Source of the DNA: Candidatus Hopanoidivoransaceae bacterium
GTDB taxonomy: Bacteria; Actinomycetota; Acidimicrobiia; Acidimicrobiales; Hopanoidiivorantaceae
Assembly: GCA_965204495.1 (NCBI GenBank)
Contig: OZ241989.1
Span: 1,504,312 to 1,568,311 of the forward strand
Reading direction: 5' to 3'
Length of the DNA stretch: 64,000 bases
The notes beneath the pieces are model-generated. The model saw nothing but the letters and a program-made list of their open reading frames with translations, did not search any database and was not told the origin of the DNA. Of this stretch, positions 22,616-54,005 are shown piece by piece (position 1 is the stretch's first letter; the number at the start of each line of letters is the position of its first letter). A program made the translations under genes and the position numbers.

Positions 22616-22658
22616 TGCTTTCTCCTGTCGGCACAGATTGACTTTTCCAGCTTAGAAG

Positions 22659-23468: not shown

Positions 23469-23522
23469 ATTCCTAGTTTATTCAGTTCGCTTGTTCTAGC
23501 TACGAGACATTTGTTTGGGAAA

Positions 23523-23710
23523 ATGGCTGAGTGCTGTTTCTTGAGTTCCAAGATGAGGCGGGGAGAGGCGTTGCGAGTTCCCATGTGAGGCGGGGACGAT
23601 GTGTCTGGTTGAACGCAAAGCCCAAGAAGCAAAAGGGTAAGGTTCAGCAAAAAAGATGCACCGTTGCCCTGCGGTTGAAGTTGTTTACTAGAAGATGCGC
23701 CGTTATCCGC
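23523..23710. repeat. right 38-bp direct repeat plus degenerate MITE/REP-like copy
   Basis: Contains the partner of 22659-22696, followed by GAGTTCC..GAGGCGGGGACG and AAAAAGATGCACCGTTGCCC half-sites. Confidence 0.7.
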
Positions 23711-23743
23711 AAACATCCAACTGCAGTAATAGGCTGAATACCC

Positions 23744-38850: not shown

Positions 38851-39979
38851 CGGTGTCGCTGAAGCCTAGGGCTACTCCTAGTTTGCTTACCACCTCTGTG
38901 GAGATCGTCATCTGCAGTTCCTTCAATGCCTCGTATGCCTCGTTCAGGCTGCTGGTGTTTTCGGCGGCGGCTGTCCGCAAGGGAGGCGTGATGGCAGACA
39001 CGGCTGCATCTGCAGCATCCAAGCGGGCGGCGAGCCTGTCGGTGATGTCATCGCCCAGCAGTTCGCTCAGGCCCATCGGTCCGTCTTCCTGCGTACTGCC
39101 TTGGTTTGCTCCGCTGCCTATCAGCACTGCCCGCATTCCAGCCAGATGGTCTGCTATATCTGCTGCGCCGAGACCTAGCGGGCCTTCTTTGACTGCATCC
39201 AGATCGCCGTTTGTGGCTGGGCGAAGCTCCATGTCGCTCGTTTTGCGCAAAAGGTTGAAGCTGCTGTTTACGATGTCGTCAACGCCGCTGCCATCGGGAT
39301 CGCTCAGCACCGTGCGATAGGGCGGGCCGTCTTCAAAGCTGGTCGTCCAGTCCGACACCAGCAGTTCTGCTTCCGCAACGACCACCTGCGTGGCAGCGGT
39401 GAGATATTCGCAGTAGCGGGGGTTCGCCAGTTTCGCAATGGCGGCTTCGGGGGCAGACGGGCTGCCGACTACATATTCCACCGCGCTGAGACCGCGTTCG
39501 TCGGCTCCGACACGGGTCGCCAGATTGTCGGCGGTCAGAGCGAACGAAGTGTCGGCGATGCGTGCATCAATTTGTTCGGCGTCAATCTCCCAGTCGATCA
39601 CGGCTCGCGAACGGCGTTCCATCACCGGCCCCACCCACATGGCTTCGCTGAACGACCAGCTGGCACGCGAAGCTTCAAGAGCGTCATAGACAGAATTGAG
39701 CGCGCCTTCGGCAGCTGCATCACTGTTGGCAGTATCGCTGCTGGCAGTATCGCTGGCAAGAGAAGCGCAAAGGTCGCTTACGGCTTCGGCGAGGCTTGAG
39801 CTGGCTGTGAGAAATTCATCGTAGGCGGGGATGATGACCTCATCGGCCAAGTCGTCCAGCGCGTCTTGGCGAGAAGGCGTGGAATCGCTACAGGCTGCTA
39901 CACCGGCCGCCAGTATCAGCCCTGCGACTGCAGCCGCCAGCAGCTTCAGCTTTGAAAAATTAGACGAGACGTTAGACAT
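38831..39979 (-). CDS. imelysin (peptidase M75-like) family lipoprotein
   Basis: Signal/lipobox LILAAGVAACSDS with an all-helical imelysin-like sequence. It is paired with a second imelysin and a di-heme protein. Confidence 0.65.
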   Translation of the reverse strand: MSNVSSNFSKLKLLAAAVAGLILAAGVAACSDSTPSRQDALDDLADEVIIPAYDEFLTASSSLAEAVSDLCASLASDTASSDTANSDAAAEGALNSVYDALEASRASWSFSEAMWVGPVMERRSRAVIDWEIDAEQIDARIADTSFALTADNLATRVGADERGLSAVEYVVGSPSAPEAAIAKLANPRYCEYLTAATQVVVAEAELLVSDWTTSFEDGPPYRTVLSDPDGSGVDDIVNSSFNLLRKTSDMELRPATNGDLDAVKEGPLGLGAADIADHLAGMRAVLIGSGANQGSTQEDGPMGLSELLGDDITDRLAARLDAADAAVSAITPPLRTAAAENTSSLNEAYEALKELQMTISTEVVSKLGVALGFSDTDGDSAG

Positions 39980-39998
39980 AGCGATACCTCACAGCTTT

Positions 39999-41423
39999 TC
40001 ACAACGCTTCCAAGAATGCCAGCAGATCCTCACGCTCGTCAGAGCTTAGAGAGCGGAACGCTTCCTTTGCCGACTCTGCTTCGCCGCCGTGCCAGAGGAT
40101 GGCTTCTTCTATGGTTCGCGCCCGGCCGTCGTGCAGCAGGAAGCGGTGGCCGTTCACATCGTCTATCAGCCCTAGGCCCCATAGGGGAGGAGTGCGCCAT
40201 TCGGAGCCGGTGGCGGCGAAGTCGGGACGGTTGTCGGCTAAGCCTTCGCCCATGTCGTGGAGGAGAAGGTCGGTGTAGGGGTGGATGGTCTGGTCGGCGA
40301 GGGTGGCGATGTCGGAGGGGCCGGTTTGGAGAGTGGGGGTGTGGCAGGCGGCGCATCCGATTTCGCCGAACAGCTCATAGCCCTTGCGCACGGAAGCGTC
40401 TTCGGGGGTGCGCATGGCGGGAACGGCCAGCGTGCGGTTGTAGAAAGTCACCGAATCCAGTCTGGAATCGCTCAGCTCCGGCTTGCCGCCGTTGGGGGCG
40501 ACAGCGCAGTCGGCTTGCACGGCGGGGCAGTTTTCATCGGGGTGTATGGCGGAGGTGATGCCGATGTCGCCGTGGAATGCGCTTGCTATCTGCTGTTCCA
40601 CTGTGGCAACATTCGCCTTCCAGCCGAAACGGCCGAGCGACATCGTGGCGGCACGGGCATCCCACACATAGTTGGCGCGCCCTGAGATGCCGTCGCCGTC
40701 GGCGTCATCAGGATCGGCCAGAGCCAAGATCGCCTCTTCCGGAACGGCCTCCAGCAGCCCCGCGCCTATTACCTGCGGGGCGAGACGAGGGCTGGTCTGA
40801 ATGTCATCAGAAAGCGAACCGAAAGCCAAGTCCACGATTTCATATATAGGGTCTCGCAGCTCAAACTCTTCTCCGTCGGCGTACTGGCCGGGCACCGCCT
40901 TGTAGCTGACTTTCAGGTCGCCTTCGGCGGGCACGCCCAGCACCGACCTGTCTTGAAGCTGACTGCCATAGTTGGGATCGGGCAGGGGCGCGCCTGTGTC
41001 GGGATGCTGGCCGGGCACCGACAGGCGCAGCAGCAAGCCGAGACGGGCTTCTTCGCCGGTCGGGTCGGGGGGCGCGCCTCGTCCGTCATGGGTGTGGCAG
41101 GAGGAGCAGGCTTGGGCGTTGAAGGTGGGGCCGAGGCCGTCGCGAGCTTCGGTGGAGGCGGGGGCGATGACCCAGTTCTGTGAGAAGAAGCTGTCGCCGA
41201 TTTCAAACTTGCGGCGTTCCTCGTTGGTGAGACCGGGCGAGGCGAGACCGAAGGCGTTGCTCGTGGCGTCTTCACGAGTGGTTTCGCCGCCGAGGTCGGC
41301 TGGGGGCACGGCGAGCGAGGATGTGCTAGAGTCAGAAGTGCAGGCACTGGCCGCTAAGAGAGCAATCGCGGCCAGTGCTGCTACGGCACCCAAGCCTCGA
41401 ACCGAAGCCGCTATTTTCGGCAC
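39999..41423 (-). CDS. di-heme oxidoreductase / putative peroxidase (DUF1111 family)
   Basis: Two CxxCH motifs (CSSCH, CAACH), a signal peptide, and the standard position between imelysin genes. Confidence 0.8.
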   Translation of the reverse strand: MPKIAASVRGLGAVAALAAIALLAASACTSDSSTSSLAVPPADLGGETTREDATSNAFGLASPGLTNEERRKFEIGDSFFSQNWVIAPASTEARDGLGPTFNAQACSSCHTHDGRGAPPDPTGEEARLGLLLRLSVPGQHPDTGAPLPDPNYGSQLQDRSVLGVPAEGDLKVSYKAVPGQYADGEEFELRDPIYEIVDLAFGSLSDDIQTSPRLAPQVIGAGLLEAVPEEAILALADPDDADGDGISGRANYVWDARAATMSLGRFGWKANVATVEQQIASAFHGDIGITSAIHPDENCPAVQADCAVAPNGGKPELSDSRLDSVTFYNRTLAVPAMRTPEDASVRKGYELFGEIGCAACHTPTLQTGPSDIATLADQTIHPYTDLLLHDMGEGLADNRPDFAATGSEWRTPPLWGLGLIDDVNGHRFLLHDGRARTIEEAILWHGGEAESAKEAFRSLSSDEREDLLAFLEAL

Positions 41424-41474
41424 AGGATGGGTGTTGCTGTCGGTCTTGCCAACCCTGCGATCTAGCCAGCCCTG

Positions 41475-42692
41475 CTAGGTGACATTGATCGTCACTCCGA
41501 GGGCTGTGGCAGCAGCGACTATGGTGTCGGTCTGGTCTTCCAAAGACACTATGCCAGCCAGCACAGCCATGCGGCCTGGGTCGCTGTCGGGCACGCCGTC
41601 ACGCAGGTGCTGATCGAACGGGCCGGGGATCTGCGAGACGGTCGTGACCGAGCTGGCCACCTCGGAATTCAGCCGAGTTGCCAAGGCGGAATCTTCCTCG
41701 TCTACTAGATCCAAGATGCTGGTTCCCGTTACGCCGCCGGGGTAGTTGGCGGTGAGCACCATCTGGATGCCGCGAGCGTTGCCCACGATGTCACGGGTGG
41801 TGTTGTCGGAGAAGCAGGAGTGCTCGTCTTCCTGCGACCGCTCGGAATACGCCACATTCATGCGCTCGCCCGCAAGCTCGCCTCGTGACAGCTCGCCGAT
41901 GCCGGTGATGATGTTGTTGAGCGCCTCGCTGTTGCTGCGCTGAAGGAAATCGGCTCGGTAGTTGCTGGCATCGGGCGCCCACTCGTCACTCACTTGCTGA
42001 AGGTGGGTGAGCAGCAGGTCGGACGCCACTCGCAGATACTGAGCGCGGCGGTCGGCGTTGGAGCGGCTGGTGTAGTCGGACACGGGGCGGTTGCCGGGGC
42101 CGGATGCGCTGAGGTCTTGGCCCCAGAGGAGGAACTCAATGGCGTGCCAGCCGGTTGAGACATTTTCCTCGCCGCCTTGCTCGTTGAGCGATGTGAGCAG
42201 GTCGGCGTCAATCGTGGGGAAGGTGGCAGGGTCGTTGATGATGCCGGCATCGGGCGCGCCCTCCACATAATCAATGTATGCCTCGTCCAACGGCCAAGCA
42301 TTTACGAGACCTTCAACCTCTTCGATCGGACCGTCATAGAAGCGGAATGCCTCGGTGGGGCCGTAGTCTTCGCGGGCGGACAGCCAGGTCTGCTTGGCGG
42401 TGTTGAGCGTTTCGCCAGACGGGTCGGCGAGGAAGGCGTCAATGGCGCTGTCCATCACGCGGGCCGTTGCCAGCGAAGCTTCGTAGGATGCCCTGACGCC
42501 TCTGGCATAGGTAGCGATGGCGTCTTCGGTGGAAGCGTCGCTGTCGTCGTCATCGCTGCCGCAAGCTGTGGCGATCAGCCCGAGGGTTGCCGCGATGGCT
42601 ACTACGGGAATCAGCAGGCGGCGGGGGGCAGAGCGGCGGGGGGCAGAGCGGCGACGCGGGCTGCGCTGGTTGTTGCTAGTTAAAAAACTCAC
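41475..42692 (-). CDS. imelysin family protein (IrpA-like)
   Basis: STGWHAIEFLLWGQD (imelysin HxxE region). The Arg-rich signal peptide carries a duplicated RRSAP unit. Confidence 0.75.
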   Translation of the reverse strand: MSFLTSNNQRSPRRRSAPRRSAPRRLLIPVVAIAATLGLIATACGSDDDDSDASTEDAIATYARGVRASYEASLATARVMDSAIDAFLADPSGETLNTAKQTWLSAREDYGPTEAFRFYDGPIEEVEGLVNAWPLDEAYIDYVEGAPDAGIINDPATFPTIDADLLTSLNEQGGEENVSTGWHAIEFLLWGQDLSASGPGNRPVSDYTSRSNADRRAQYLRVASDLLLTHLQQVSDEWAPDASNYRADFLQRSNSEALNNIITGIGELSRGELAGERMNVAYSERSQEDEHSCFSDNTTRDIVGNARGIQMVLTANYPGGVTGTSILDLVDEEDSALATRLNSEVASSVTTVSQIPGPFDQHLRDGVPDSDPGRMAVLAGIVSLEDQTDTIVAAATALGVTINVT

Positions 42693-42894
42693 TGGATTTC
42701 TCCTTTGGGTTTGAGTCGGGTGTGTTTGAGTCGGAGGTTCTTCAGAGGGTGTTCGGTTGTGCTTGTTCTATTCTTTAGAAGTATGTTAGCCATAGTTAAC
42801 TAGTTTTGACAACCTATGTTTACAAGAAATTTTTTCTAGCCCGCCGCGACACGACAAAGGCAGTGCGGCAATAGGCGGGCGGTAGAATTCACAT

Positions 42895-43872
42895 GTGAGT
42901 TTTCCTGCCAGAAGGATGCGCCGTCTGAGGCGAACTGCGGCTTTGCGCCGGCTCGTGGCTGAAACCACTCTGGCCCCTGCCGACCTGATCGCTCCGCTCT
43001 TCGTGCGAGAGGGCATAGATGCCCCCGAGCCGATCCCGTCGTTGCCGGGCGTGGTTCAGCACACGCTCGCCTCGCTGCGCTCGGAAGCGGCCGAGCTTCA
43101 AGCTTGCGGCATCGGCGCGGTCATTCTCTTCGGCGTGCCCGAAGTCAAAGACGCTGTGGGCTCAGGGGCCTTCGCCCCAGACGGCATAGTGCAAGTCGCT
43201 CTAGCGGAACTGCGGGAAGAATTCGGTGACAGCATCGTGCTCATCGCCGACCTCTGCGTGGACGAATACACCGAACACGGCCACTGCGGAGTGCTCACCG
43301 CCGAAGGCGCAGTCGACAACGACGCCACCTTGGAGATATATGCAAAAGCTGCCTGCGCTCAAGCTGGCGCAGGGGCCGACATTGTGGCGCCCAGCGGAAT
43401 GATGGACGGCCAAGTGGCAGCCATCCGCTCTGCGCTAGACGGCGAAGGCCGCCCGGAGACAGCCATCCTCGCGTATGCGGCTAAATACGCCTCCAGTCTC
43501 TACGGGCCGTTCCGTGATGCCGTGGCGGTAGAGCTTGCGCCCGGCCAAGACCGCCGCGCCTACCAGCAAGACTGGCGCAACGCCAGAGAAGCCTTGGAAG
43601 AAGTGCGTCTAGACATTGAAGAAGGCGCAGACATGGTGATGGTGAAGCCGGCGGTGACATATCTGGATGTGATCCAGCGAGTGCGCCAAGAAGTGCAGGT
43701 GCCGCTAGGCGCATATCATGTCTCAGGCGAATACGCCATGATAAAAGCCGCCGGCGCAGCAGGCTGGCTAGACGCCGAAGCCGCAGCCATAGAGCAGCTA
43801 ACAGCAGTAAAACGGGCAGGTGCCGACTTCATCCTCACCTACTTCGCCAAAGAAGCAGCCGAACGGCTCTAA
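42895..43872 (+). CDS. hemB: porphobilinogen synthase (delta-aminolevulinate dehydratase)
   Basis: RMRRLRRTAALRRL N-terminus, DLCVDEYTEHGHCG, MVKPA, YHVSGEYAM. Confidence 0.95.
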   Translation: MSFPARRMRRLRRTAALRRLVAETTLAPADLIAPLFVREGIDAPEPIPSLPGVVQHTLASLRSEAAELQACGIGAVILFGVPEVKDAVGSGAFAPDGIVQVALAELREEFGDSIVLIADLCVDEYTEHGHCGVLTAEGAVDNDATLEIYAKAACAQAGAGADIVAPSGMMDGQVAAIRSALDGEGRPETAILAYAAKYASSLYGPFRDAVAVELAPGQDRRAYQQDWRNAREALEEVRLDIEEGADMVMVKPAVTYLDVIQRVRQEVQVPLGAYHVSGEYAMIKAAGAAGWLDAEAAAIEQLTAVKRAGADFILTYFAKEAAERL

Positions 43873-43975
43873 TGATGTGCTAGCGGGTCGCGGGCATGCG
43901 CATCCAAGGCTTCGGACATGGACGTTTCGGCATCGGCGATTCGTTCAGCTAGTCGGTCTTCGGTCTGTCCGATGA

Positions 43976-44146
43976 CTACTTGATGCCTTGAGTAGCATCA
44001 CGGATGGCGGCCCGTGTCTGCTTGTGTTCGTTTGCGGAGTGTTTGCGGTCTTGTATCGCACGGTGGTCGGCTTTAGTAAGCCGCTTGTCAATGCTGTCGA
44101 GCCGGGTGGCGATGTCGGCTAGCGTAGGTTCTTTGTCGGTTGCCAT
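43976..44146 (-). CDS. small hypothetical coiled-coil ORF (56 aa), possibly a frameshifted remnant
   Basis: MATDKEPTLADIATRLDSIDKRLTKADHRAIQ.... An adjacent frame continues to 43869. Confidence 0.25.
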   Translation of the reverse strand: MATDKEPTLADIATRLDSIDKRLTKADHRAIQDRKHSANEHKQTRAAIRDATQGIK

Positions 44147-44270
44147 TCGACTGCCTTTCTATTGCGGATATCGCTATTCTAGCATGAAAAATCCTAGTCG
44201 CCAACATTATCCGCCAGCCCAGTCCGCATCACCGCCCAAGAACTCGGCAAAAAATATTTCCGAGAATGAC

Positions 44271-44299
44271 TTGACAAACACGATCAAACATGCTATAGT
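44271..44299 (+). promoter_or_regulatory. near-consensus promoter P1 (TTGACA-17 nt-TATAGT), ATG 7 nt downstream
   Basis: cTTGACAaacacgatcaaacatgcTATAGTgatctatATG. It is paralogous to the P2 block at 50019-50068 on the opposite strand. Confidence 0.7.
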
Positions 44300-44306
44300 G
44301 ATCTAT

Positions 44307-44630
44307 ATGAACATGAGAAGACTGCCAAGTTTGCCTGCAGGCGTTGGTCTGATGGCACCCAGTCTCGCCCCTGTCCAGCAAACGGCTACTCCTGGGCATA
44401 ACCTGCGGAGGGGGGCTGATTGCTCATTAGGAGGGCAGTCTAGAAGTTTCCCTTGCGCCGCGTCGCTGCTTGGGTTTCTGGCGCAATCTGTGGGGGTCTT
44501 GTTTAGAGGGAGGGTTTGCAGTTTTGTTGCGGGGTGTGTTTGGCGACAGGGCAGAGAATCTTTGTCGCTTGCGAGGCGAAGTGATGGGGATATGAGTGTT
44601 TGCCTAAGTTGGCATTTGGAGGTGCTGTAA
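44307..44630 (+). CDS. putative leaderless 107-aa Cys/Arg-rich ORF
   Basis: The ATG lies at leaderless distance from P1, and the stop overlaps the next start (TAATG). The first 22 codons align without gaps to the N-terminus of the 49494-50024 ORF (shared P7, L9, P10, P18, L20, P22). The composition is otherwise unconvincing. Confidence 0.4.
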   Translation: MNMRRLPSLPAGVGLMAPSLAPVQQTATPGHNLRRGADCSLGGQSRSFPCAASLLGFLAQSVGVLFRGRVCSFVAGCVWRQGRESLSLARRSDGDMSVCLSWHLEVL

Positions 44631-46204
44631 TGGAACTTTCGGACATTTTCAGCAGTGAAACTCAGGTATCTTTTGTTTTTCCATTTAAGTTAAGTCTGTC
44701 GTGTGTCATTTTTGAAGGCAAGGACGAGGAAGTCCAATTTGACTATGACAGGTGGAAGAGTCGTGTCATTTGCAAACTTATTTGCCACAAAAATTCTTCG
44801 GATGGCTGTTATTTGTTTTCTTGGGATGAAGTTGCCGAAGATCTTTCGGATTCTTCTAGCTGTGAATTTTTGCCCAACTGTTTTCTGAAAGCCAAAATTG
44901 AGGATTCTGCCAAATTAGGATGGCTTAATGATTGTTTAAGAGATTTCAAATTTAATGGACTTGGCTTAGAAGTAAGTTGTGTTGAGATGAAGCTTTGGGA
45001 GTTCGGCTTCGGCTCAATCAAAATAGTCTCGAAGGTCATTTCGGATTTGTTAGATGGCGAACAAAAATCATTGAGTGAGGTACTCGATGATTTTCAAACT
45101 ATGCTTAATGAAAAATTTTTGAAAATTTTGGAACCCAAAATAGATTACGAAATTATTTGGAGATGCAATTTTCAAAGAAAGGATGATCCAAAAGAAATTA
45201 CAAGTTTTGCGGAGATTGCTCTTAAGCATAAAAAGAAAACTTTTCAACAAAAAAACAAGGATTACACAAAGTATAATTTTGATTTGTTGGAGCCTATATC
45301 CACTGTTCAAAGTAAAATAATAGACGAAAACGATGATAATGTAATTAATATGCAATCCTCGGGTTTGCGTAGAATAGAAACTAAAGATGAAATTGAAGGG
45401 AACTCATTTAAGATTTACATTTCAAATAACAGGAAGTTATTAGTTTCAATTTTTCAACAGAATTCAGAAGAATATGACAAAATTAAATTTAATGAAATTA
45501 TAGAAACAGTTATTGTTCACAAAGAATTTGGTGTATATCTAAATAAAATTGGCCAAACTTATGAACCCTTTTTGTCAACTTATTCTGATAAAATAGCGAA
45601 AGAAAGTATACATAATAGTAAATTGTGGCCTGACTGGCACGCATTTGCTTGGAATGTCTTGCAAGAAAAAAAGGGCTTAGATACAATTTTGACTGAGATA
45701 CAGGAAGTATCAAGAATAAGCATAATAATGTTTAACACTCTTGATAGTCAAGCAAATAGCTATCTGTCATATTCAAATTTGAGTACTCTCAAAATTGCAA
45801 ATAAAATTTTTGACCTGAATAGAATACGTGACAGCAACAATGAATTATTTTCACTCGTTAATAGATATTATGCAAAAATTAGCAATCATAATGAAAAGCT
45901 ATCTTTGTTTGCTGAATCAGTAATTGCATTTTATTTTCCTACATCATTGTCATTCATTGCTTTGATTCTAAGTTTCGCGGCAATTGATGGTGCTTTTGGT
46001 GAAACATTGAGTAATGTCATACGTTCCACTTTCCCATGGAATCTCTCTATATTGCCGGTCATTGCAGTAATTGTATTATCTTTGCTGGTATCATGCGTTG
46101 AGCGTGCTGAAAAGAGAGAAATTGAAAATGCTAGGAAGCCAGGAAGTGTCTTGGAGACACATCAGTTATGGATCGAAATGCTTGAAACTGAGAAAACAAT
46201 GTGA
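44630..46204 (+). CDS. hypothetical membrane-anchored protein (524 aa), AT-rich gene
   Basis: GGAGG lies 7 nt before ATG 44630 (MELSDIF). The large soluble N-terminal region is followed by two C-terminal TM helices (SVIAFYFPTSLSFIALILSFAAI, LSILPVIAVIVLSLLVSCV). Sampled lines are ~30% G+C. Confidence 0.7.
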   Translation: MELSDIFSSETQVSFVFPFKLSLSCVIFEGKDEEVQFDYDRWKSRVICKLICHKNSSDGCYLFSWDEVAEDLSDSSSCEFLPNCFLKAKIEDSAKLGWLNDCLRDFKFNGLGLEVSCVEMKLWEFGFGSIKIVSKVISDLLDGEQKSLSEVLDDFQTMLNEKFLKILEPKIDYEIIWRCNFQRKDDPKEITSFAEIALKHKKKTFQQKNKDYTKYNFDLLEPISTVQSKIIDENDDNVINMQSSGLRRIETKDEIEGNSFKIYISNNRKLLVSIFQQNSEEYDKIKFNEIIETVIVHKEFGVYLNKIGQTYEPFLSTYSDKIAKESIHNSKLWPDWHAFAWNVLQEKKGLDTILTEIQEVSRISIIMFNTLDSQANSYLSYSNLSTLKIANKIFDLNRIRDSNNELFSLVNRYYAKISNHNEKLSLFAESVIAFYFPTSLSFIALILSFAAIDGAFGETLSNVIRSTFPWNLSILPVIAVIVLSLLVSCVERAEKREIENARKPGSVLETHQLWIEMLETEKTM

Positions 46205-46314
46205 CAGAAACTTGCATTCTGGAATCGATAAAAATAAACAAAATTATATCAACTTAAACTGCCATTTTAATAAAAATATGTCATCAAAATGGGCATACAA
46301 ATAGCAAAAATCCA

Positions 46315-48234
46315 ATGATTATTAAAACTATAAAATATCTAAACAGCGTCTTAGCTTTAACACTAGTAGTGTTATTATTTGCTGCGGCTTGTTCATCTGG
46401 TGCCTCTGACGGTGCTGATAGCACCCTGCCAGTGGAGTCTGATATGAGCGCGACAACCGCAGACGGAGTTACATCATTTTCAAGAGTCTCGACTCCTACA
46501 ACTGCTGCAGAGAGCAGTGGGGTAGAGGTTTCTGTCGTTGTGCCGTTCACATCAGGTAACGGTTCTGGATATGTGACTGTTTCTGGCGATAGTTCGCCTG
46601 TGGCAGAGTGGTTCGCTAATCAGCCAGGTGAGGTTTCGCTGGATTTGGTTGACGCTGATGTTGCCGATCCTGCCTCTGTGGTTGAGGAGATGATAAGTTT
46701 CTGGTATTTCCAAGATGGCGATAGCGGCGATGTTCCGCCGTCAATCTATGTTTCAGGCGGCGGCGAAATCACCGACAGCCTGGGCACAAGCTATGTCGTA
46801 GAAGGCGAGCTTTTGCCGCCAGCACCGGTCGCGGAAGCTGCAACTACTACGACCAGCACGACTACCACTTCTACTGCACCAGCGACTACTGCTACAACCT
46901 CAACGACTACTTCCGGTGCGTCAACTGAACAATCTGAGCCGCCAAGTACAACAACTTCGACTGAGCCAGCAATAACCACAACAACTACTACTGTTGTGGA
47001 GTCGCCGGTGACATTGCAGGTTCAAGTATTAAATGGCAGCGGTGTGGCTGGAGCAGCCGGTCGGCTTACTGCTAAGCTTGCCGAAGCTGGCTATACCGTT
47101 TTGCCGGCAGGTAACGCACCTGAAAGATACGCCACTTCTGCCGTCTACTATCAGGATGGCTGGCAGGACAGAGCCGAGGAGATACTGGCAGCATCTGAAC
47201 TAGAAGAGATAGATCAGGTTTCTGCTATGCCGCAACAGTTCGTATCGCCAGACGCTGCTGTTGTTGTGCTTATCGGCAGAGACACCGCTCCTGTTGCAGT
47301 TAGGAGCAGCGGGCCTGCGCCGATTACAAGGTATCGGCTAGGACCAGAAGATGTTCCGATTAATGTGCCGAAAGATAGGTTCGATCCAAGAGCTTTTGGC
47401 GCATCGCTTCCTGTGAATGTGCGTGACCGACCGGAAGATGTGGCAAGGTCAAGCAATTTACTCAAAAGAGCCGCTTATTGTTTCGAGGATGAGATTGCGT
47501 ATTTTGAGGACAACTGCTTGGAAAACGATCTGCCAGCAATCTGGGCCGAGATAGAGCAGATATTTGACAGGCTCGGTTTTACTTCTAAGAACGTTTGCGG
47601 CTCTGTAGCTGACGGCAGCTTCACAGACGGCATAGTGCACACAGCAGAATGGAACCCAGCAACCGGAAACTACAGCGGCGACCTGATTTTCACAACAGAC
47701 AGGTTTATAGAAATAAACCGCCAAGCAGGAATAGATGTGCAGCGGATAAACCCGCAAGCGAACCTAGATTTCTATCTCAGAAAAGCCGCGCAATCAGCAC
47801 ACGACAGACTCAGATTCCAAGAAATCATGAAAGAAACAAGTGCCAGTCATCTCATACTATGCGCATCATGGGTAACAGAATCAGGGTCTATGCCATGGGC
47901 AGCCTACTCAGTAGCGAACACATTCGCCGCTCCGGTAAGAGAATTTTTATCACAAGGCACATACCACATCAAAGAAATATCCAGGAACGGAAACCTCGCC
48001 CATGTTATTGTGTGCCATCCGACAATAAGAGAACGCCATATTCTCTTGCACTGGCACCAAACTGGATATCGCGCAATACAGCTAGCATACAGCACTCATA
48101 CTGGCTGCCAAGGAACTTTCGACGGCGAAACATCAATCTCAGAAGACACGAACAGAGCGGAAGACACCATCAGATACACCTTCGGCCAGCAAGTCTTCGC
48201 CGCCGCCGACCTGCAGGGGTTTCCTAGAGCCTGA
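46315..48234 (+). CDS. secreted/lipoprotein with T-rich linker, LytR_C domain and unknown C-terminal domain
   Basis: Signal LALTLVVLLFAAACSSG, then a TTTTSTTTTSTAPATTATTSTTT linker. VTLQVQVLNGSGVAGAAGRLTAKLAEAGYTV matches the LytR_C pattern. The last ~300 aa are unassigned. Confidence 0.7.
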   Translation: MIIKTIKYLNSVLALTLVVLLFAAACSSGASDGADSTLPVESDMSATTADGVTSFSRVSTPTTAAESSGVEVSVVVPFTSGNGSGYVTVSGDSSPVAEWFANQPGEVSLDLVDADVADPASVVEEMISFWYFQDGDSGDVPPSIYVSGGGEITDSLGTSYVVEGELLPPAPVAEAATTTTSTTTTSTAPATTATTSTTTSGASTEQSEPPSTTTSTEPAITTTTTTVVESPVTLQVQVLNGSGVAGAAGRLTAKLAEAGYTVLPAGNAPERYATSAVYYQDGWQDRAEEILAASELEEIDQVSAMPQQFVSPDAAVVVLIGRDTAPVAVRSSGPAPITRYRLGPEDVPINVPKDRFDPRAFGASLPVNVRDRPEDVARSSNLLKRAAYCFEDEIAYFEDNCLENDLPAIWAEIEQIFDRLGFTSKNVCGSVADGSFTDGIVHTAEWNPATGNYSGDLIFTTDRFIEINRQAGIDVQRINPQANLDFYLRKAAQSAHDRLRFQEIMKETSASHLILCASWVTESGSMPWAAYSVANTFAAPVREFLSQGTYHIKEISRNGNLAHVIVCHPTIRERHILLHWHQTGYRAIQLAYSTHTGCQGTFDGETSISEDTNRAEDTIRYTFGQQVFAAADLQGFPRA

Positions 48235-48259
48235 TTTAAGGAAAAAGAAGATTTTACTT

Positions 48260-49039
48260 TTAGCTTGACAAGACACTTATAAATTGGTCAGGGTTAGACC
48301 ATAAAGACACCACAGAAAGATCTTCAACGAGATTAAAGTCTTCAGGTTTCCAAATATCCGTGTTGTCATCAAATAGTGAAATAAACTGCTGCTTAGACTC
48401 TCCGTTGGCTAAGTGGCGAATATCATACCACCCAGCTATTGTATGTTCTACAATCCTTCGAGTAGCTGCAGTGCTTTCGGTTGCTAAAATCTGAATAAGA
48501 GATTTTTGTGATTCTGTATTAACGCTAAAGTCCACATTCCAAAACTTGCCAGATTTCCCCTCAATATTTTTTGACCGGGAAAAATTAATCTTTTTCTCAT
48601 CCATGAAATCAGCAACTTCGTCAGAAATCGAAGAAACAGCTCTTGTTCTGAAAGTGAACCAAAGATCTGAGATTCGTATAGATGCATGAGCAACTTTTGT
48701 AATGGTTTCAGCCAACGAATCTCCTGAGCGACAGCGAGCCAAAAGCATTTCTCGATAGAACTCTACGCCATGAGTGACGCAAGTATCTTGAATTAGGTAA
48801 TTCTGCTTATAGGAACGCCGCTGTGACAAAGAATGCATAGACAGCCAATTTGTTGTTTCGGCGAAATCTGTCACTATCAGCTCATCTCCGTTTTCCGTGG
48901 GCTTACAGAAAATGTCAATGACTTCCCCATCAGGGTAAAGGTAAGGTGTGCGAACACGAAACCGCCCATTTTGTTCAGTGACGGCGAATTGTTGTCCCAA
49001 ATCGGCCAACAGCGTCTCGAAGCGTTTGCTGAGGTTCAT
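48260..49039 (-). CDS. DUF1828/DUF1829-like protein (259 aa)
   Basis: FRVRTPYLYPDGEVIDIFCKPTENGDELIVTDFAETTNWL fits the DUF1828 pattern. The later GKSGKFWNVDFSV segment fits DUF1829. The start ATG overlaps the upstream stop (ATGA). Confidence 0.6.
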   Translation of the reverse strand: MNLSKRFETLLADLGQQFAVTEQNGRFRVRTPYLYPDGEVIDIFCKPTENGDELIVTDFAETTNWLSMHSLSQRRSYKQNYLIQDTCVTHGVEFYREMLLARCRSGDSLAETITKVAHASIRISDLWFTFRTRAVSSISDEVADFMDEKKINFSRSKNIEGKSGKFWNVDFSVNTESQKSLIQILATESTAATRRIVEHTIAGWYDIRHLANGESKQQFISLFDDNTDIWKPEDFNLVEDLSVVSLWSNPDQFISVLSS

Positions 49040-49491
49040 ATGAATAACTCCTCTTGTCGTGGTAATGGTGGTCCTAGTATACCTGTATGTGTTATATTGG
49101 CCAATTCGCAAAATTGTTGCCACACGGCAACAGGGTTGGAAATTTCAGCCGTGATCTCTTCAGGAACACGAGCTACTTTGTCTCTGAATTCTTCGGTCCA
49201 TTCGTGGAGGTGTGTTTCTCCTACCATATTGCAATGAGGATTGTGGTGCTCTTTGCCTAAGTCAACCCCAAATATGCGTCCATGTTTTTTATGAACAATA
49301 AGGTAGTTGAGTTTGCTAACGTCGGGATTGAAAGTAGCATGGAGAAACAGAGGCCATTCTGACACTATATCGACACGGAATTCGCTTACGGAACGATTAT
49401 TCTCCCTTCTGCCCCACTCAATGTTCCCATTGATGTATTTTGGCTCTCTAATGATTGAGCCGAATTCATGCTTGGATAACTGGGCAGTCAT
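49036..49491 (-). CDS. hypothetical protein (151 aa), His-rich motif GKEHHNPHCNMVGETHLHEW
   Basis: Tightly coupled to both neighbours (2-nt gap upstream, 4-nt overlap downstream). AT-rich. Confidence 0.6.
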   Translation of the reverse strand: MTAQLSKHEFGSIIREPKYINGNIEWGRRENNRSVSEFRVDIVSEWPLFLHATFNPDVSKLNYLIVHKKHGRIFGVDLGKEHHNPHCNMVGETHLHEWTEEFRDKVARVPEEITAEISNPVAVWQQFCELANITHTGILGPPLPRQEELFI

Positions 49492-49493
49492 AA

Positions 49494-50024
49494 TCAGATG
49501 GCGAGTCTCAGGTGCCCTTTACCGCTAACCGATCGGACACTACTTGCTTTTGAAGGGTGAGCGGAGTTTTCGATAATTGCATCCAGAAAACTGACTGGAG
49601 CTAGAAGGTACTCTCTGTCTACAGCTTTGATAGCATATCGTCTCATGGTATTACAGCATTCGGGTTGCCTCATGCTTTTGACTATATAAGAAGGACACTG
49701 CCTTGTCAAGTGCACATTTGGGAAAATTGTTTCGCGCCGTCGTTGTCCTCTTTGACTGAATGGACATGTTGCAAGGCTAGCACATGGCGCGTGCGTGAGC
49801 ATGGGAGGCAAATGTGTTGCCGCTTTGTGATAATAGGCGGTTCGGACGAGATTGCCGAGAGATCTGTTTTGGCAAAAGCCGAGTACGCCAGCCACGAATC
49901 GGATGGCTGTTGTGCTGCTGCAGGTGCCTGCCATGCTGTCTACTGCAGCACAGTCTGCCGGCGTGAGCCGAGGCACTGTGCGACTGTCGCTTGTCGGCAG
50001 CATCGGAGCGGTTTTCTCGGTCAT
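49494..50024 (-). CDS. hypothetical Cys-rich ORF (176 aa); possibly only its last 59 codons (from ATG 49673) are a separate gene
   Basis: ATG 50024 lies 6 nt after the P2 -10 box. An internal consensus promoter (P3) places the in-frame ATG 49673 7 nt after its -10. Confidence 0.4.
   Translation of the reverse strand: MTEKTAPMLPTSDSRTVPRLTPADCAAVDSMAGTCSSTTAIRFVAGVLGFCQNRSLGNLVRTAYYHKAATHLPPMLTHAPCASLATCPFSQRGQRRRETIFPNVHLTRQCPSYIVKSMRQPECCNTMRRYAIKAVDREYLLAPVSFLDAIIENSAHPSKASSVRSVSGKGHLRLAI
49681..49709 (-). promoter_or_regulatory. near-consensus promoter P3 (TTGACA-17-TATAGT) inside the 176-aa ORF
   Basis: The minus strand reads cacTTGACAaggcagtgtccttcttaTATAGTcaaaagcATG. Confidence 0.6.
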
Positions 50025-50030
50025 TTGCCC

Positions 50031-50059
50031 ATCGTAGCATGTTGCGCGGTGTTTGTCAA
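50031..50059 (-). promoter_or_regulatory. promoter P2 (TTGACA-17-TACGAT), ATG 6 nt downstream
   Basis: The minus strand reads gagaatgacTTGACAaacaccgcgcaacatgcTACGATgggcaaATG. The first 20 nt are identical to the P1 block. Confidence 0.65.
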
Positions 50060-50136
50060 GTCATTCTCTAAAAAATTTTTGGCTTGTGCTGCTGTGCTGG
50101 AATCCGGGTTGCGGTCGCCGTTAAAGTAGCAGACCT

Positions 50137-51885
50137 ATGGGGTTTGCAGCTTTCGCGAAAATTTTCAGATACGGTATCCTAGCCGCCGTCGCACTGGCGA
50201 CAGCCTTCGCTGCTGTGCTCTGGCTGACCGCCACCCCAGCCTCAGCACTTGGCGGAGGCGGCGGGGTTGGCGACACGGAGAAGAATTGGGATACTGACAA
50301 TTTGCGGTTCGGGAATTATTCTGCTAAGAGTTTTGCTATACCGCATCTGAAGCCTAGCGAGCGTGGTTCTCATGAGGCTTGCGGGGCTGGTGTGGTGGAC
50401 GGGTTTTTTCAGCTTGATACTGATGTGCGCAACGATCTGCCGATTTTGGATGTGACGGTTCCAGCCAGCGGCGCGCCGTCTGTGGCGCACAGAGCGGCTG
50501 CGACTTGTTCGGAGTTCGTGACCGAGCAGGTTATCGCTCGTAACGTCGGTCGCGGTAACGGCGGTTATTGGCTTGACAGTCAAGGTATTCTGCGGCGAGG
50601 GTTGCCGTCTCATACCACAGGCAGGAATTACAGGACGCAGAGATGGTCGCCCAGCAGCCAGACATATCAGAGCGGCAGGTTCAGGATAGACGCTGAGACG
50701 ACTTCTGGCAGCTACGGTTTCGACGGCTATGCCGCGCGGATTGACTATTACACAGGCAGCGCAAGTTTAGCTAACGCGAAATTCAGGGTTGCGGGTAATG
50801 TCAGCTTTGCTGTTCCGCACAGCATTGAGCTAGTCGTGAACACCAAGAAGTCTGGCAGCGTATACACTTGGACACCTGTTTTTCCTGCTTCTGCCAGAGT
50901 GACCGCAGCTACGGCTGTGCATCTGCAAGCCGGAGATTATCTGAGTTTGTGCCCGTCTGGTTTTCATCCTAGGGGCGAAGACGCGGTGCGCAGGATAGGC
51001 AACGGCACAGGTAGAACCTTGTCGTCGCTGGATGAGGCAGGCGAAACCCGGCTGGCTGACCAGTATTGGTGCCGCTCCGATGTTCGCAAGCAAATATGGT
51101 ACGAACCAGAGTTCACAAGCAGAACTTGCGGCCCGGACCCACGACCGACATGTCCTGCTGGTGTGACTGTGCCAACCAAAGAATTCCAGGCTTATTGTCG
51201 TGTGGGCTGTTTTTTCACAGCCACAGATCTGGACACGACATCGATGCAAAGAGGCACAACTGCCATACAGGGCACGCAGAAGAATACCTGCTCTTATATG
51301 TATCCGATACCGCAATGCACAGAGAACGGAACTAAAAAGCCTATAGCCAGAGCCAAGCTGGACAGCCTGTATGTCGCTCCTATAAACAGCCCAGGGGTGT
51401 TTCCTTTCGCTTCTGACGGCAGCACAGCTTGCGACACTAATCCGCAATGCACCGCGAACGGAGCCAAACGCGATATGACTGACGCTGAGCTTCAAGCCTA
51501 CAGAACAGCCAGAGGCGCTAGTTTTGTTCCTGCCAGTGACGCCAGCACGCCTTGCACGGCAGCAGTCGCAGCTAGCGCGGCTGCCGATTTCACTGCCGAT
51601 GCTTGCGTGACAGCGATACTGGAAATTTACGAGAACCGACCTAAAGGTTTCAACGCCGAACCTGGTGTGCGCGCAGATCATCGCACAGTGACAGCTGACA
51701 CGGCTAATCCTGTTTTCGATTTGGATGTCGCTGCTGCGCATCCTGGAACAGCCAGCCCGCCTAGAGCGACCAGTGATCCTTCGGGTTGCGCGGACGGCTC
51801 TGAAGCAAGAGCCGACCATGGAACAGCCGACTCTGCGGCACGCAAGAACACAGGAGCGGAAGACGCCGAGGCTGCTATCTCATAG
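50137..51885 (+). CDS. secreted Cys-rich hypothetical protein (582 aa)
   Basis: Signal peptide ILAAVALATAFAAVLWLTATPASALG and many paired Cys residues. No family recognised. Confidence 0.6.
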   Translation: MGFAAFAKIFRYGILAAVALATAFAAVLWLTATPASALGGGGGVGDTEKNWDTDNLRFGNYSAKSFAIPHLKPSERGSHEACGAGVVDGFFQLDTDVRNDLPILDVTVPASGAPSVAHRAAATCSEFVTEQVIARNVGRGNGGYWLDSQGILRRGLPSHTTGRNYRTQRWSPSSQTYQSGRFRIDAETTSGSYGFDGYAARIDYYTGSASLANAKFRVAGNVSFAVPHSIELVVNTKKSGSVYTWTPVFPASARVTAATAVHLQAGDYLSLCPSGFHPRGEDAVRRIGNGTGRTLSSLDEAGETRLADQYWCRSDVRKQIWYEPEFTSRTCGPDPRPTCPAGVTVPTKEFQAYCRVGCFFTATDLDTTSMQRGTTAIQGTQKNTCSYMYPIPQCTENGTKKPIARAKLDSLYVAPINSPGVFPFASDGSTACDTNPQCTANGAKRDMTDAELQAYRTARGASFVPASDASTPCTAAVAASAAADFTADACVTAILEIYENRPKGFNAEPGVRADHRTVTADTANPVFDLDVAAAHPGTASPPRATSDPSGCADGSEARADHGTADSAARKNTGAEDAEAAIS

Positions 51886-52065
51886 ATGTCGCTGCCGACG
51901 GCAAAGTCACGGTGCAAACAGCAAGAATGGACTTCGAAACAGGCAGCTAAGCTGTGGGTGAAACCTACAGCCGGCTGTTCTCTGGCGACAGGAACTGCAA
52001 AATCAAAAGAACACGCACAGACGTCAGTGCGGTGTCTGCAGCCACAGCGAGCGGGTTTTACTGGT

Positions 52066-52275
52066 ATGCTGAATGCCATGTCAGCGGAATCAGTCATACA
52101 GCGCGACCCAGAAATTATGGGTGGAACGCCGACCTTCGCAGGTACGCGTGTTCAAATCAGGTCTTTGCTGGACGAGTTGGCATCCGGAACCTCAATGGAG
52201 GAATTCATAGAGCTGTATCCCGATGTGTCACGTCAGCAGGTCAAGGCGGCACTGCTGGAATTGTGCCCGCAGTAG
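52066..52275 (+). CDS. DUF433 domain protein (antitoxin-like)
   Basis: DPEIMGGTPTFAGTRVQIRSLLDELASGTSMEEFIELYPDVSRQQVKAALLEL matches the DUF433 pattern. The start is ATG 52066 or 52078. Confidence 0.75.
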   Translation: MLNAMSAESVIQRDPEIMGGTPTFAGTRVQIRSLLDELASGTSMEEFIELYPDVSRQQVKAALLELCPQ

Positions 52276-52288
52276 TCGCGTATATCTT

Positions 52289-52678
52289 GTGCCAACTTAT
52301 CCTCGGCGGGTTTTACTAGACGCTTGTCTCTCTCCGCAACTCAGCCAACTTTTCCCAGAAGATTTCGAAGTAGCCGATGCCAGAGCCAAAGGCTGGCACA
52401 AAATGAAGAACGGGGAGTTGACCGAAACAGCAGCGGAGAGCGGGTACGAGGCTATCGTCACCAAAGATCGTGCCTTCTATAGAAAAAGAGGGGTGCAACC
52501 GTTCCCGTTCCCTGTCTTCTTGATCATTCCGTCAGAAGGTTATGACACAGTGTCATATCACAAGCAAGTAATGCCTGCAATAATTGGCGATATGCTGAGC
52601 GGCGTAGAAAAACAGCACTACTCGTATGGAGAGGAGTTGCCGGGCTTGGAATCTGTGCATAAGACTATTTCTCCCTGA
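52289..52678 (+). CDS. DUF5615 (PIN-like) protein, partner of DUF433
   Basis: VLLDACLSPQLSQLF...ELTETAAESGYEAIVTKDRAF fits the DUF5615 pattern. The GTG start is inferred just after the DUF433 stop. Confidence 0.6.
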   Translation: MPTYPRRVLLDACLSPQLSQLFPEDFEVADARAKGWHKMKNGELTETAAESGYEAIVTKDRAFYRKRGVQPFPFPVFLIIPSEGYDTVSYHKQVMPAIIGDMLSGVEKQHYSYGEELPGLESVHKTISP

Positions 52679-52721
52679 TGCGGAAGAGATTTCCCGAAGT
52701 GCCGTATGTCCCAATCAGCTT

Positions 52722-54005
52722 ATGACTTCTAGCAAATCTTTATTCAGCCGGGCTCAGGGCGTTATTCCGGGCGGGGTGAACTCGCCGGTGCGGGCTTTCG
52801 GATCGGTGGGGGGGACTCCTTATTTTGTGTCGCGTGCCGAGGGGTCGCACATCTGGGATGCCGACAGCAATCGCTACCTTGACTATGTGATGAGCTACGG
52901 CCCGCTCATTTTGGGGCACGCTCATCCCGCCGTGGTAGATGCAGTAGCCGAGGCAGCTGCGGGCGGAACGAGCTATGGCGCGCCCACCGAGCGGGAAGTG
53001 CTGCTGGCGGAAGAACTCTGCGAGCGAATCCCGGGGATGGAAATGGTGCGACTGGTCTCCAGCGGCACCGAGGCCACGATGACGGCAGTGCGACTGGCTA
53101 GGGGGGCGACAGGGCGCGACATAGTGGTGAAGTTCGCAGGCTGCTATCACGGACACGCCGACTTTCTGCTAGCCGCCGGCGGCAGCGGGGTGGCAAATCA
53201 AGGTCTCTCAGGCTGCGACGGCGTAACGGCGAGCGCGGTGGCCGACACAATAGTCGCCCCGTATAACGAGGTGCCTGAACTGGACGAGCGAGTGGCGGCG
53301 GTGATTGTAGAACCTGTAGCAGCCAACATGGGGTTGGTCGCCCCCGAGCCAGATTTTCTGCCCCAGCTGCGAGATGCCTGCAGCAAAGCTGGCGCGCTGC
53401 TGATCTTTGACGAGGTGATCACAGGTTTCCGCCTGTGCCGAGGCGGAGCGGCCGAGTGGTTCGGTGTGCAGCCCGACCTTTGGTGCTTCGGCAAGGTAAT
53501 CGGCGGCGGACTGCCCGTAGGAGCTTTCGGCGGCAAGCGAGAGATCATGGAGCATCTAGCCCCCCTAGGCGGCGTCTACCAAGCAGGCACGCTCTCGGGC
53601 AACCCACTAGCCACCGCAGCAGGCCTTGCCACGCTAGCCGAACTAGACGTCCGAGCCTACGAAACCCTAGCCAACACCACCGCCCGCCTAGCAAAAGGCA
53701 TGGCTCAAGCCATAACCGAGGCAGGCATCGCCGCCGTACTGCCCCAAGTGGGCCCCCTGCTCGGGTTGTTTTTCTGCGACACCTCGCCGAAGTCTTTTGA
53801 CGAAGCCGACAAAGCCGCCCAGAACGGCGTCTATCCTCGCTTTTTCCACGCCATGCTCAAAGAAGGCATAGCCCTGGCCCCAGGCCCCTACGAGATCCTC
53901 TTCCCCAGTCTCGCCCACACCGAAGAAGACATCGCCCAAAGCATAAGCGCAGCCAGCAAAGCAGCCCTAGCCGCCGACGAAGCCGCAGCCGCAGCTCAGA
54001 CCTGA
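52722..54005 (+). CDS. hemL: glutamate-1-semialdehyde 2,1-aminomutase
   Basis: GVIPGGVNSPVRAF, FDEVITGFR. Start set at MTSSKSLF (ATG 52722). Confidence 0.95.
   Translation: MTSSKSLFSRAQGVIPGGVNSPVRAFGSVGGTPYFVSRAEGSHIWDADSNRYLDYVMSYGPLILGHAHPAVVDAVAEAAAGGTSYGAPTEREVLLAEELCERIPGMEMVRLVSSGTEATMTAVRLARGATGRDIVVKFAGCYHGHADFLLAAGGSGVANQGLSGCDGVTASAVADTIVAPYNEVPELDERVAAVIVEPVAANMGLVAPEPDFLPQLRDACSKAGALLIFDEVITGFRLCRGGAAEWFGVQPDLWCFGKVIGGGLPVGAFGGKREIMEHLAPLGGVYQAGTLSGNPLATAAGLATLAELDVRAYETLANTTARLAKGMAQAITEAGIAAVLPQVGPLLGLFFCDTSPKSFDEADKAAQNGVYPRFFHAMLKEGIALAPGPYEILFPSLAHTEEDIAQSISAASKAALAADEAAAAAQT

Follow-up and report, generated by a model that had tools for sequence, protein, structure and literature searches.

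The window analysed here, a whole stretch of 64 kb from Candidatus Hopanoidivoransaceae bacterium, carries an island of 8,849 nt between the tetrapyrrole genes hemB and hemL (43873-52721). It is a real, lineage-specific variable island of soil Acidimicrobiales, and it is a composite of modules with separate histories, not one recent insertion. We read the hemB-hemL interval, with a probability of about two thirds, as a hotspot of the kind termed "replacement flexible genomic island", a four-module composite whose alleles would be swapped by homologous recombination in the flanks. A conserved core site would thus hold different, partly analogous gene sets, exchanged via its flanks and not by a site-specific recombinase. 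The first module would be the small gene o56 beside hemB, common to the window and to the related contigs L093 and L094 (L-numbers designate the loci or contigs compared). The second would be a 7.6-kb cassette with a near-consensus sigma-70 promoter, a leader, the AT-rich gene AT534, a LytR_C lipoprotein gene and the gene of a Cys-rich protein. A PDC-M24 gene pair, inverted, nested in a slot of this cassette and probably driven by a copy of the same promoter, would form the third, and a DUF433/DUF5615 pair beside hemL the fourth. This reading is carried by the anatomy, synteny and composition of the site, by the recurrence of the cassette at other loci, by remnants in relatives, and by a recombination tract at the left edge.

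The hemB-hemL site and its variation among genomes

An earlier reading of the window, made from the sequence only, had placed an insertion between hemB and hemL. Its boundaries, the end of hemB at 43872 and the start of hemL at 52722, are upheld by the PF00490 and NF000818 matches of the two genes (Table 1), the hemL product on record having 427 residues. The synteny comparison agrees with the insertion itself. Among 185,579 species genomes, the best HemB match is 74% identical, and the top matches are metagenome-assembled genomes of Acidimicrobiales. tblastn analysis reports hemB and hemL as adjacent in 25 out of 25 other Acidimicrobiales species genomes having both (L001-L017, L019, L020, L022-L026), with matches 0-410 nt apart and often with hemD directly upstream of hemB. 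No relative of an island protein was found in these 25 hemB-hemL loci. The island gene set is therefore not conserved across the clade at this place, and the insertion is lineage-specific.

The exact AT534 product is encoded by the source contig (2.62 Mb) and by two contigs of other samples, L081 (74 kb) and L082 (9.4 kb). Both have a gene order identical to that of the window island, and both junctions are present across the assemblies. The DUF433 gene is also called in L082.

The interval has 47.4% G+C and its two flanks have 58.8% and 61.7%. In 1.5-kb windows, the G+C content is 0.593 +/- 0.026 outside the island and falls to 0.327 within it (z -10.4), and the tetranucleotide distance inside reaches z 13.8. 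Between about 43500 and 50500, the deviation remains above z 2.5. The mosaic, atypical composition noticed at first sight against flanks of ~60% is thus confirmed by computation. The specific figure of 28-32% G+C applies to 44630-46300 (32.7%; 60-nt lines 18-45%) and does not apply to 48300-49500, which has 42.5% (60-nt lines 32-53%). Island proteins were scanned with Pfam, NCBIfam, PHROGs and PADLOC. These scans agree with the initial gene list as regards a protein with two transmembrane helices, a LytR_C lipoprotein, a Cys-rich protein and a DUF433/DUF5615 pair; what had been called a DUF1828/1829 operon consists of DUF6978 and DUF1828, and DUF1829 has no match in the family scans. No paralogs of island genes were found elsewhere in the 64-kb window.

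The HemL cluster at 90% identity has seven members, one of which led to the megabase contigs L093 and L094. These are genus-level relatives, with core DNA 93-96% identical to that of the window, and their hemB-hemL interval measures 2.9 kb. It contains, beside hemB, a 56-residue gene identical to o56, then a diverged copy of the island promoter, a 535-residue LytR_C lipoprotein with 50% protein identity to that of the window, and about 670 nt with collinear fragments of Cys582, the gene of the Cys-rich protein (79-89% identical), DUF433 (94%) and DUF5615 (97%). Since these remnants are collinear, the common ancestor of these lineages already had genes at the site, and the right-hand genes (Cys582, DUF433 and DUF5615) appear, from their fragments, to have decayed by deletion in one branch. 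The LytR_C proteins at the site are 50% identical, as compared with 95-100% for the flanking core proteins. The island centre is therefore far more diverged than the core, which indicates allelic replacement. As to o56, it is kept beside hemB in these genus-level relatives and lies outside the variable part; its 90% cluster has 5 members, and Pfam and related scans report no family match.

The left edge of the variable segment adjoins a stretch of unusual identity. Window positions 42883-44216, which cover hemB and o56, are 99.3% identical to positions 6136-7469 of L093/L094, as compared with 93-96% for the neighbouring DNA. All nine mismatches fall within 42892-43071, in the first 190 nt, and the following 1145 nt (43072-44216) have none. 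This zero-divergence tract runs right up to the variable segment and stops some 30 nt short of the promoter block; the neighbouring core DNA diverges by 4-7% (about 5% elsewhere). Differences at third codon positions amount to 10-11% in neighbouring core genes and 1.6% in hemB. Such a tract, abutting the variable segment, bears the signature expected of recent homologous recombination. For the acquisition mechanism, which had seemed unclear, homologous recombination in the conserved flanks is now the best explanation.

A near-identical island is seen in different flanks in L081 and L082, with chimeric assembly being possible. L082 differs from the window island by 2 mismatches in about 8,380 positions; its tract identical to the window ends at 52934, and from 52935 its hemL is another allele, 4.5% diverged (55 differences in 1 kb) and distinct from both the window and L093 alleles. 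In L081, the left flank is of the L093 type (99.8-99.9% identical, including hemB and o56), and the island and right flank are of the window type, with 0 mismatches in 2,380 nt.

As first reported, the island has no integrase, transposase, tRNA or att repeat, and this stands after library scans, a tRNA search and a repeat search. No integrase, recombinase or transposase domain was detected in the island genes by the four libraries, no tRNA in the 64-kb window, and no flanking direct repeat or target-site duplication at the island. The uncoded gaps are too short to leave room for a recombinase gene.

Table 1. Features of the hemB-hemL interval and its flanks (window coordinates; aa, amino acids; ORF, open reading frame; TM, transmembrane; GC3, G+C content at third codon positions).
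Feature	Position	Strand	G+C	Match or basis
hemB (porphobilinogen synthase), left core flank	42895-43872	+		PF00490, E 1e-134
o56, 56 aa	43976-44146	-		ORF; identical gene called in L093/L094
Left edge of variable segment	44217	.		blastn breakpoint; L093/L094 homology ends at 44216
Left promoter block, A-tract then TTGACA-17-TATAGT	44247-44299	+		Promoter scan, 11/12 positions
Leader ORF, 107 codons, G/T-rich	44307-44630	+		Open frame; stop overlaps AT534 start (TAATG)
AT534, 524 aa, two C-terminal TM helices	44630-46204	+	33%	GC3 30%
LytR_C lipoprotein, 639 aa	46315-48234	+	50%	PF13399, E 8e-13; 2m5y match at 1.6e-5
Segment of the two PDC-M24 genes	48260-49491		42.5%	
PDC-M24B (DUF1828), 259 aa	48260-49039	-		PDLC04540, E 4.6e-92; PF08861, E 6e-9; phrog_5059, E 6e-21
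PDC-M24A (DUF6978), 151 aa	49036-49491	-		PDLC04533, E 5.7e-51, residues 5-150; PF22398, E 5e-13
Leader-like ORF, 176 or 169 codons, between right block and M24A	49494-50024	-		ORF list
Right promoter block, TTGACA-17-TACGAT, facing the M24 genes	50035-50083	-		Promoter scan, inverted repeat
Cys582, 582-aa secreted protein, 15 Cys	50137-51885	+	56%	N-terminal hydrophobic segment
Segment between Cys582 and hemL	51886-52721		52%	
DUF433 protein, 69 aa, putative antitoxin position	52066-52275	+		PF04255, E 4e-18
DUF5615 (PIN-like), putative toxin	about 52289-52678	+		PF18480, 24.1-24.6 bits; PIN_10 weak
hemL (glutamate-1-semialdehyde 2,1-aminomutase), right core flank	52722-54005	+		TIGR00713/NF000818, E 1e-166 to 1e-174

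A recurring cassette and its AT-rich gene

The cassette extends from 44217 to about 51885 and comprises, in this order, a promoter block, the leader ORF, AT534, the LytR_C lipoprotein gene and Cys582. Related genomes have it at four further chromosomal sites. Besides hemB/hemL in the window, it is found between a VCA0040-like gene and a methyltransferase gene, near otsAB (L084 and L087), near folP (L089), and beside nucleotidyltransferase, globin and sucC genes (L092). The promoter-leader-AT534-LytR_C arrangement, full or partial, occurs in L084-L092 and L095, and is present wherever the DNA of a relative was recovered, including AT534 members only 22-25% identical. The LytR_C gene directly follows the AT534 homolog in L087, L088, L089, L091 and L092; L084 keeps only LytR_C fragments and L095 shows only a lipoprotein start. 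A homolog of Cys582 lies downstream in L089 (35% identical) and L092 (82%). The slot between LytR_C and Cys582, which holds the M24 module in the window, is empty in L089 and filled by unrelated minus-strand genes in L092; L087 is devoid of a Cys582 gene and has unrelated minus-strand genes after its LytR_C gene. The slot genes of the other cassette copies return no Pfam or PADLOC match, and the M24 module is absent from every other cassette copy compared.

Several of these copies show peculiarities of their own. In L091, the AT534 homolog and the N-terminal portion of the LytR_C protein encoded after it are joined in a single call of 688 residues (237-2303, P0003), which is either a read-through or an assembly/frameshift effect. 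In L089, the AT534 homolog is split (339 and 179 residues) and a 1-nt deletion interrupts the leader frame; this copy is therefore probably decaying. In L092, the position of AT534 is occupied by a 562-residue AT-rich protein (215-1903, 36% G+C). BLAST finds no similarity between it and AT534; it shares a (K/R)xxEFGFGS motif and two C-terminal transmembrane helices with AT534, and is therefore probably a very distant member of the family.

The promoter-leader block has the core GAGAATGACTTGACAAAC and is conserved before all AT534 homologs with recovered upstream sequence. In the window it is present as two inward-facing copies, which form the arms of a 49-nt inverted repeat (44247-44295 and 50035-50083) that is 82% complementary and brackets 5.8 kb. 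The likeness of the arms stops at the -10 box, and the 20-mer core of the block is exact in both, these being its only two occurrences in the window. The left block is predicted to drive the leader and AT534, and the right block, which also matches the leaders of L084 and L092, the M24 genes. In L089, the block occurs twice in direct orientation (1015-1082 and 2070-2137), the first copy preceding two small ORFs of 113 and 107 residues. A role of the inverted repeat as transposon ends was ruled out, since its arms are promoter copies that occur singly or directly repeated elsewhere, and so was a role as an invertible segment, all three assemblies sharing one orientation. The leader-like ORF between the right block and M24A has no family match in Pfam or PADLOC; within it lies a further consensus promoter (49709-49681), with an ATG downstream at 49673. 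In the 64 kb, the full pattern TTGACA-17-TATAGT-7-ATG has two occurrences, at 44271 and 49709.

The G/T-rich leader has a length of roughly 180-350 nt across cassette copies. Only 7 nt separate its ATG from the -10 box, and the mRNA is therefore probably leaderless. In five diverged copies, the leader frame contains no stop, as compared with 4-8 stops in the other frames, and shuffling gives a probability of 0.009-0.036 per copy for the frame to be open by chance. Substitutions in the leader show no codon-position bias. We read the leader as a translated ORF, probably coupled to AT534, whose nucleotide sequence would also be constrained. A structured RNA is not supported: an Rfam scan of 43500-53000 reports only a chance match to a fly long non-coding RNA, the folding z is 0.09 and the covariation term is unfavourable. 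A possible 8-bp pairing was noticed between a leader segment resembling ACAGCACC (44353-44360) and GGUGCUGU (44620-44627) before the AT534 start, at columns 47-54 and 355-362 of alignment A8. As an anti-start device it was rejected: it is kept in 92.5% of cells, but with no compensatory change and no statistical support.

AT534 returns no Pfam, NCBIfam or PADLOC family. Among 5.8e9 clustered proteins it has 5 relatives, and a profile search of 1.84e9 representatives gives 11; AT534, M24A and M24B are all singletons at 90% identity. A search of IMG/VR viral contigs found no relatives of AT534 or M24B. Hydrophobic segments cover residues 429-460 and 466-495. An AlphaFold2 model calculated from a 10-sequence alignment (pLDDT 67.5, pTM 0.72) predicts an N-terminal α/β domain, long helices and two C-terminal membrane helices. 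The best 14 PDB fold matches to this model are all CorA/CmaX proteins, with a probability of at most 0.95, E-values from 4e-3 to 7e-2 and TM-scores of 0.1-0.3. At the level of this model, the resemblance is one of architecture, not of family membership.

The family is very small and, from codon comparisons, appears to evolve fast. The syntenic orthologs of L084 and L087 share 73% protein identity and differ by 142 nonsynonymous vs 54 synonymous-only codon changes, as compared with 72 vs 114 in the neighbouring otsA. In the same two loci, the neighbours of AT534 share 82-91% identity and differ at 18-29% of third and 3-9% of second codon positions. The third-position divergence of AT534 itself, 18%, matches that of its neighbours, which argues for vertical inheritance there while GC3 remained at 27-29%. 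Across the window, L084, L087 and L092, GC3 of AT534 is 27-31%, as compared with 60-77% for core genes. AT534 homologs have 24-36% G+C within DNA of 55-62% G+C, and the windowed G+C of the L095 homolog is 24-31%. Polarised substitutions (66 AT>GC and 45 GC>AT) give an equilibrium G+C near 40%, a value subject to small numbers and parsimony bias. AT-richness is thus a lasting trait of the AT534 family, and since it is found in every host examined, the low G+C is not simply a donor signature. It is either kept by selection or drawn from an unseen AT-rich pool.

The LytR_C lipoprotein comprises a lipobox signal, S/T-rich linkers, the LytR_C domain (residues 234-323) and a C-terminal domain of 300 residues. 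The latter defines a clade-specific family with 76 homologs, including two paralogs in the same genome. Cys582 has 38 homologs; Pfam analysis of 24 members of its family reports no match. All members seen of both families come from environmental assemblies. Sequence and profile searches of the PDB with M24A, M24B, AT534, the LytR_C C-terminal domain and Cys582 matched only the LytR_C domain itself. AT534, the LytR_C protein and Cys582 are all predicted to reside at the envelope, AT534 in the inner membrane, from their signal, lipobox and transmembrane segments, from the LytR_C domain and from the CorA-type fold matches.

The nested PDC-M24 pair and the DUF433/DUF5615 pair

M24A and M24B are adjacent and co-oriented, overlap by 4 nt, and match both PDC-M24 profiles nearly end to end. 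The pair is nested in the cassette slot in opposite orientation, with its own copy of the promoter block. M24A contains the segment HHNPHCNMVGETHLHEW, which may resemble His-Me/HNH nuclease motifs. No relatives of M24B were found in plasmid collections, and a phage collection returned a single match of 25% identity, from a Halorubrum virus. PADLOC reports PDC-M24 as the one candidate antiphage system of the island; the PIN-like pair is not in PADLOC, and a cluster of several validated defence systems was not found by it. The PDC systems are 145 candidates, put forward on the grounds that their genes sit within BREX, DISARM or type I restriction-modification loci (Payne et al., bioRxiv 10.1101/2024.01.29.577857). 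Both window genes match the profiles of PDC-M24, one of these PADLOC candidates, and are adjacent and co-oriented. Unlike in its type setting, the window pair lies outside any BREX, DISARM or type I restriction-modification locus, inside an unrelated cassette and behind a borrowed promoter and leader. In the literature library searched, no paper mentions PDC-M24.

Two-gene modules of DUF433 and DUF5615 are commonly regarded as type II toxin-antitoxin-like pairs. The window pair shares with them a small DUF433 gene directly upstream of DUF5615 and a wide scatter; the 90% clusters of its two proteins have 7 and 25 members on many contigs, and the pair is thus far commoner than the rest of the island. 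In the window, the DUF5615 match is marginal and the start of the gene uncertain. It may be 52223, 52289 (GTG) or an internal ATG, and a start at 52289 leaves a 14-nt gap from DUF433. The source record appears to annotate a DUF5615 product of 91 residues, and the Pfam match extends upstream of that start. From sequence, the two genes form a putative PIN-like toxin-antitoxin-type pair.

Origin of the island and its relation to known systems

That the island is an assembly artefact, whether through a chimeric join or through contamination of a metagenome-assembled genome, is hardly credible. The source is a metagenome assembly, and L081 and L082 illustrate joins that strain mixtures could make, but the 8.8-kb structure with both junctions is present in the source contig and in two assemblies of other samples, and relatives hold an identical left part and collinear remnants of the right part. 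A decayed mobile element of the classical sort (an integrative element, a prophage or a transposon), inserted once by site-specific or transpositional recombination and since deprived of its mobility genes, would fit the atypical composition, the inverted repeat bracketing 5.8 kb, the distant relatives of M24A and M24B in phage families (PHROG matches, and the Halorubrum virus protein) and the presence of the cassette at several chromosomal sites. It is nevertheless quite improbable, given the lack of an integrase, transposase, tRNA or flanking repeats and of room for a lost recombinase gene, and given that the repeat arms are promoter blocks found before AT534 homologs elsewhere, in direct orientation in L089. 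Moreover, no relatives are found in IMG/VR viral contigs or plasmids, and the modules differ in distribution and G+C.

We consider it unlikely that the AT-rich part was acquired recently and in one event from an organism of low G+C, its composition being a donor signature yet to drift towards that of the host. The 33% G+C in a genome of 59%, the GC3 of 30% and the singleton status of M24A, M24B and AT534 at 90% identity are what such an import would leave. Against it, all AT534 relatives with recovered DNA lie in contigs of 55-62% G+C, behind the same leader and with a LytR_C or lipoprotein neighbour; even a member 22-25% identical in protein is AT-rich (24-36% G+C), the vertically inherited L084 and L087 orthologs are AT-rich too, and the equilibrium G+C is near 40%, not 59%. 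The opposite proposal, an old, vertically inherited clade-specific locus whose oddity would stem from local selection and deletion only, accommodates the Cys582, DUF433 and DUF5615 remnants of L093/L094, which show occupancy before the lineages split, the native multi-copy families of the LytR_C C-terminal domain and Cys582 in the clade, and an AT-richness that is a family trait. It is improbable as well, in view of the 50% identity of LytR_C proteins at a site flanked by core proteins 95-100% identical, the 1145-nt identical tract adjoining the variable edge, the same cassette at four other chromosomal sites and the absence of the M24 module from every other copy.

Several points weigh against replacement through the flanks, as we favour it, or against the functions attached to it. 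The moves of the cassette among four unrelated sites are left unexplained by flank recombination, and the site has at least three versions, namely the window type, the L093/L094 type and the empty state of distant relatives. In L081 and L082, co-occurring strains may have been assembled into chimeras: L081 has a coverage of 4x, both strain types occur in its sample, and an assembler could cross over in the 1145-nt identical stretch. These two contigs are therefore suggestive, not decisive, and the case for recombination rests mainly on two megabase contigs. The roles of all cassette genes are predictions from sequence. PDC-M24 is a "guilt-by-embedding" defence candidate, and the DUF5615 match barely exceeds the Pfam cutoff of 23.8 bits. 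The CorA likeness of AT534 is weak at its TM-scores of 0.1-0.3; a CorA profile does not match AT534 in Pfam even at E 5, there is no PDB profile match, no GMN motif is found in AT534, and its transmembrane region is unconserved in the 11-sequence alignment.

Replacement flexible genomic islands exhibit peaks of synonymous substitution at their boundaries (Lopez-Perez, Martin-Cuadrado & Rodriguez-Valera 2014, PMC4033161). The window shares with them a fixed core site, diverged genes of probably analogous type, predicted exposed or envelope products, a recombination tract at the boundary and the absence of mobility genes. It differs in that its boundary signal is 1145 nt of zero divergence, that two occupied versions are seen, that "additive" cargo (M24 and the toxin-antitoxin-like pair) is present, and that the hosts are soil Acidimicrobiales, not aquatic isolates. 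With the defence-island hotspots (Hochhauser, Millman & Sorek, bioRxiv 10.1101/2022.06.09.495481), it has in common a discrete site and variable cargo including defence-type genes; unlike these, it holds one candidate system and one toxin-antitoxin-like pair, and most of its cargo consists of envelope proteins. AT534 itself, as modelled, may share an α/β N-terminus, long helices and two C-terminal transmembrane helices with CorA/CmaX/ZntB channels and with the CRISPR-associated CorA membrane effector (PMC10600005). In contrast to the channels, it has no sequence match or GMN motif, a very low TM-score, a persistently AT-rich gene and fast evolution, and in contrast to the effector, no CRISPR or signalling enzyme is near. 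Xenogeneic silencers of the Lsr2/CgpS type recognise sharp G+C drops in the high-GC genomes of Actinobacteria (PMC7002338, PMC6584129). Such a drop within a high-GC actinobacterial genome is also displayed by AT534; unlike in the AT-rich islands bound by these silencers, its low G+C is a conserved property of a gene family, not a transient foreign mark.

Within the replacement hotspot as we read it, cargo acting at the envelope and in phage-host interaction would account for the variability of the site and the fast evolution of AT534. By analogy, AT-richness may serve to hold back a membrane protein that could be harmful, which would be silenced or poorly translated owing, for example, to Lsr2-type binding or rare codons. 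A further-reaching proposal makes the cassette an undescribed, clade-restricted envelope unit of Acidimicrobiia acting in phage exclusion or abortive infection, with a gene-capturing slot and an AT-richness selected for control, through either Lsr2-type silencing or leader throttling (GC3 about 30% in AT534, 60-77% in the hosts). We regard it as possible but doubtful. The island itself is ordinary in kind; what stands out is the cassette, with its persistently AT-rich gene.

Two other regions of the window deserve mention. Between cobA/hemD (minus strand) and hemB, genes for HTTM/VKGC-like, imelysin, di-haem DHOR and imelysin proteins (37249-42692, minus strand, with 35545-37233) form a cluster of native composition. 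Many other Acidimicrobiales have hemD immediately upstream of hemB and in the same orientation; here the cluster separates the two, and hemB is therefore flanked on both sides by lineage-specific change. Further upstream, a 754-residue RCC1/WD40_RLD repeat protein (23744-26008, plus strand) is encoded in a region that is a tetranucleotide outlier (z about 5). This region has strong strand skews, with a GC skew of +0.25 and an AT skew of -0.39, and the adjacent 22501-24000 has 51.9% G+C.

The hemB-hemL island provides an example of a chromosomal hotspot that varies without mobile-element machinery, in poorly studied uncultured soil Actinomycetota, and its exact boundary and recombination tract are trackable in metagenomes. 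It also places the PDC-M24 candidate in a new host group and genetic setting. A by-product is a small unannotated family of about 30% G+C in genomes of 60% G+C, maintained across deep divergence behind a conserved leader. If the composition of AT534 is selected, this family would be a natural test case for AT-richness controlling dangerous genes in high-GC bacteria.

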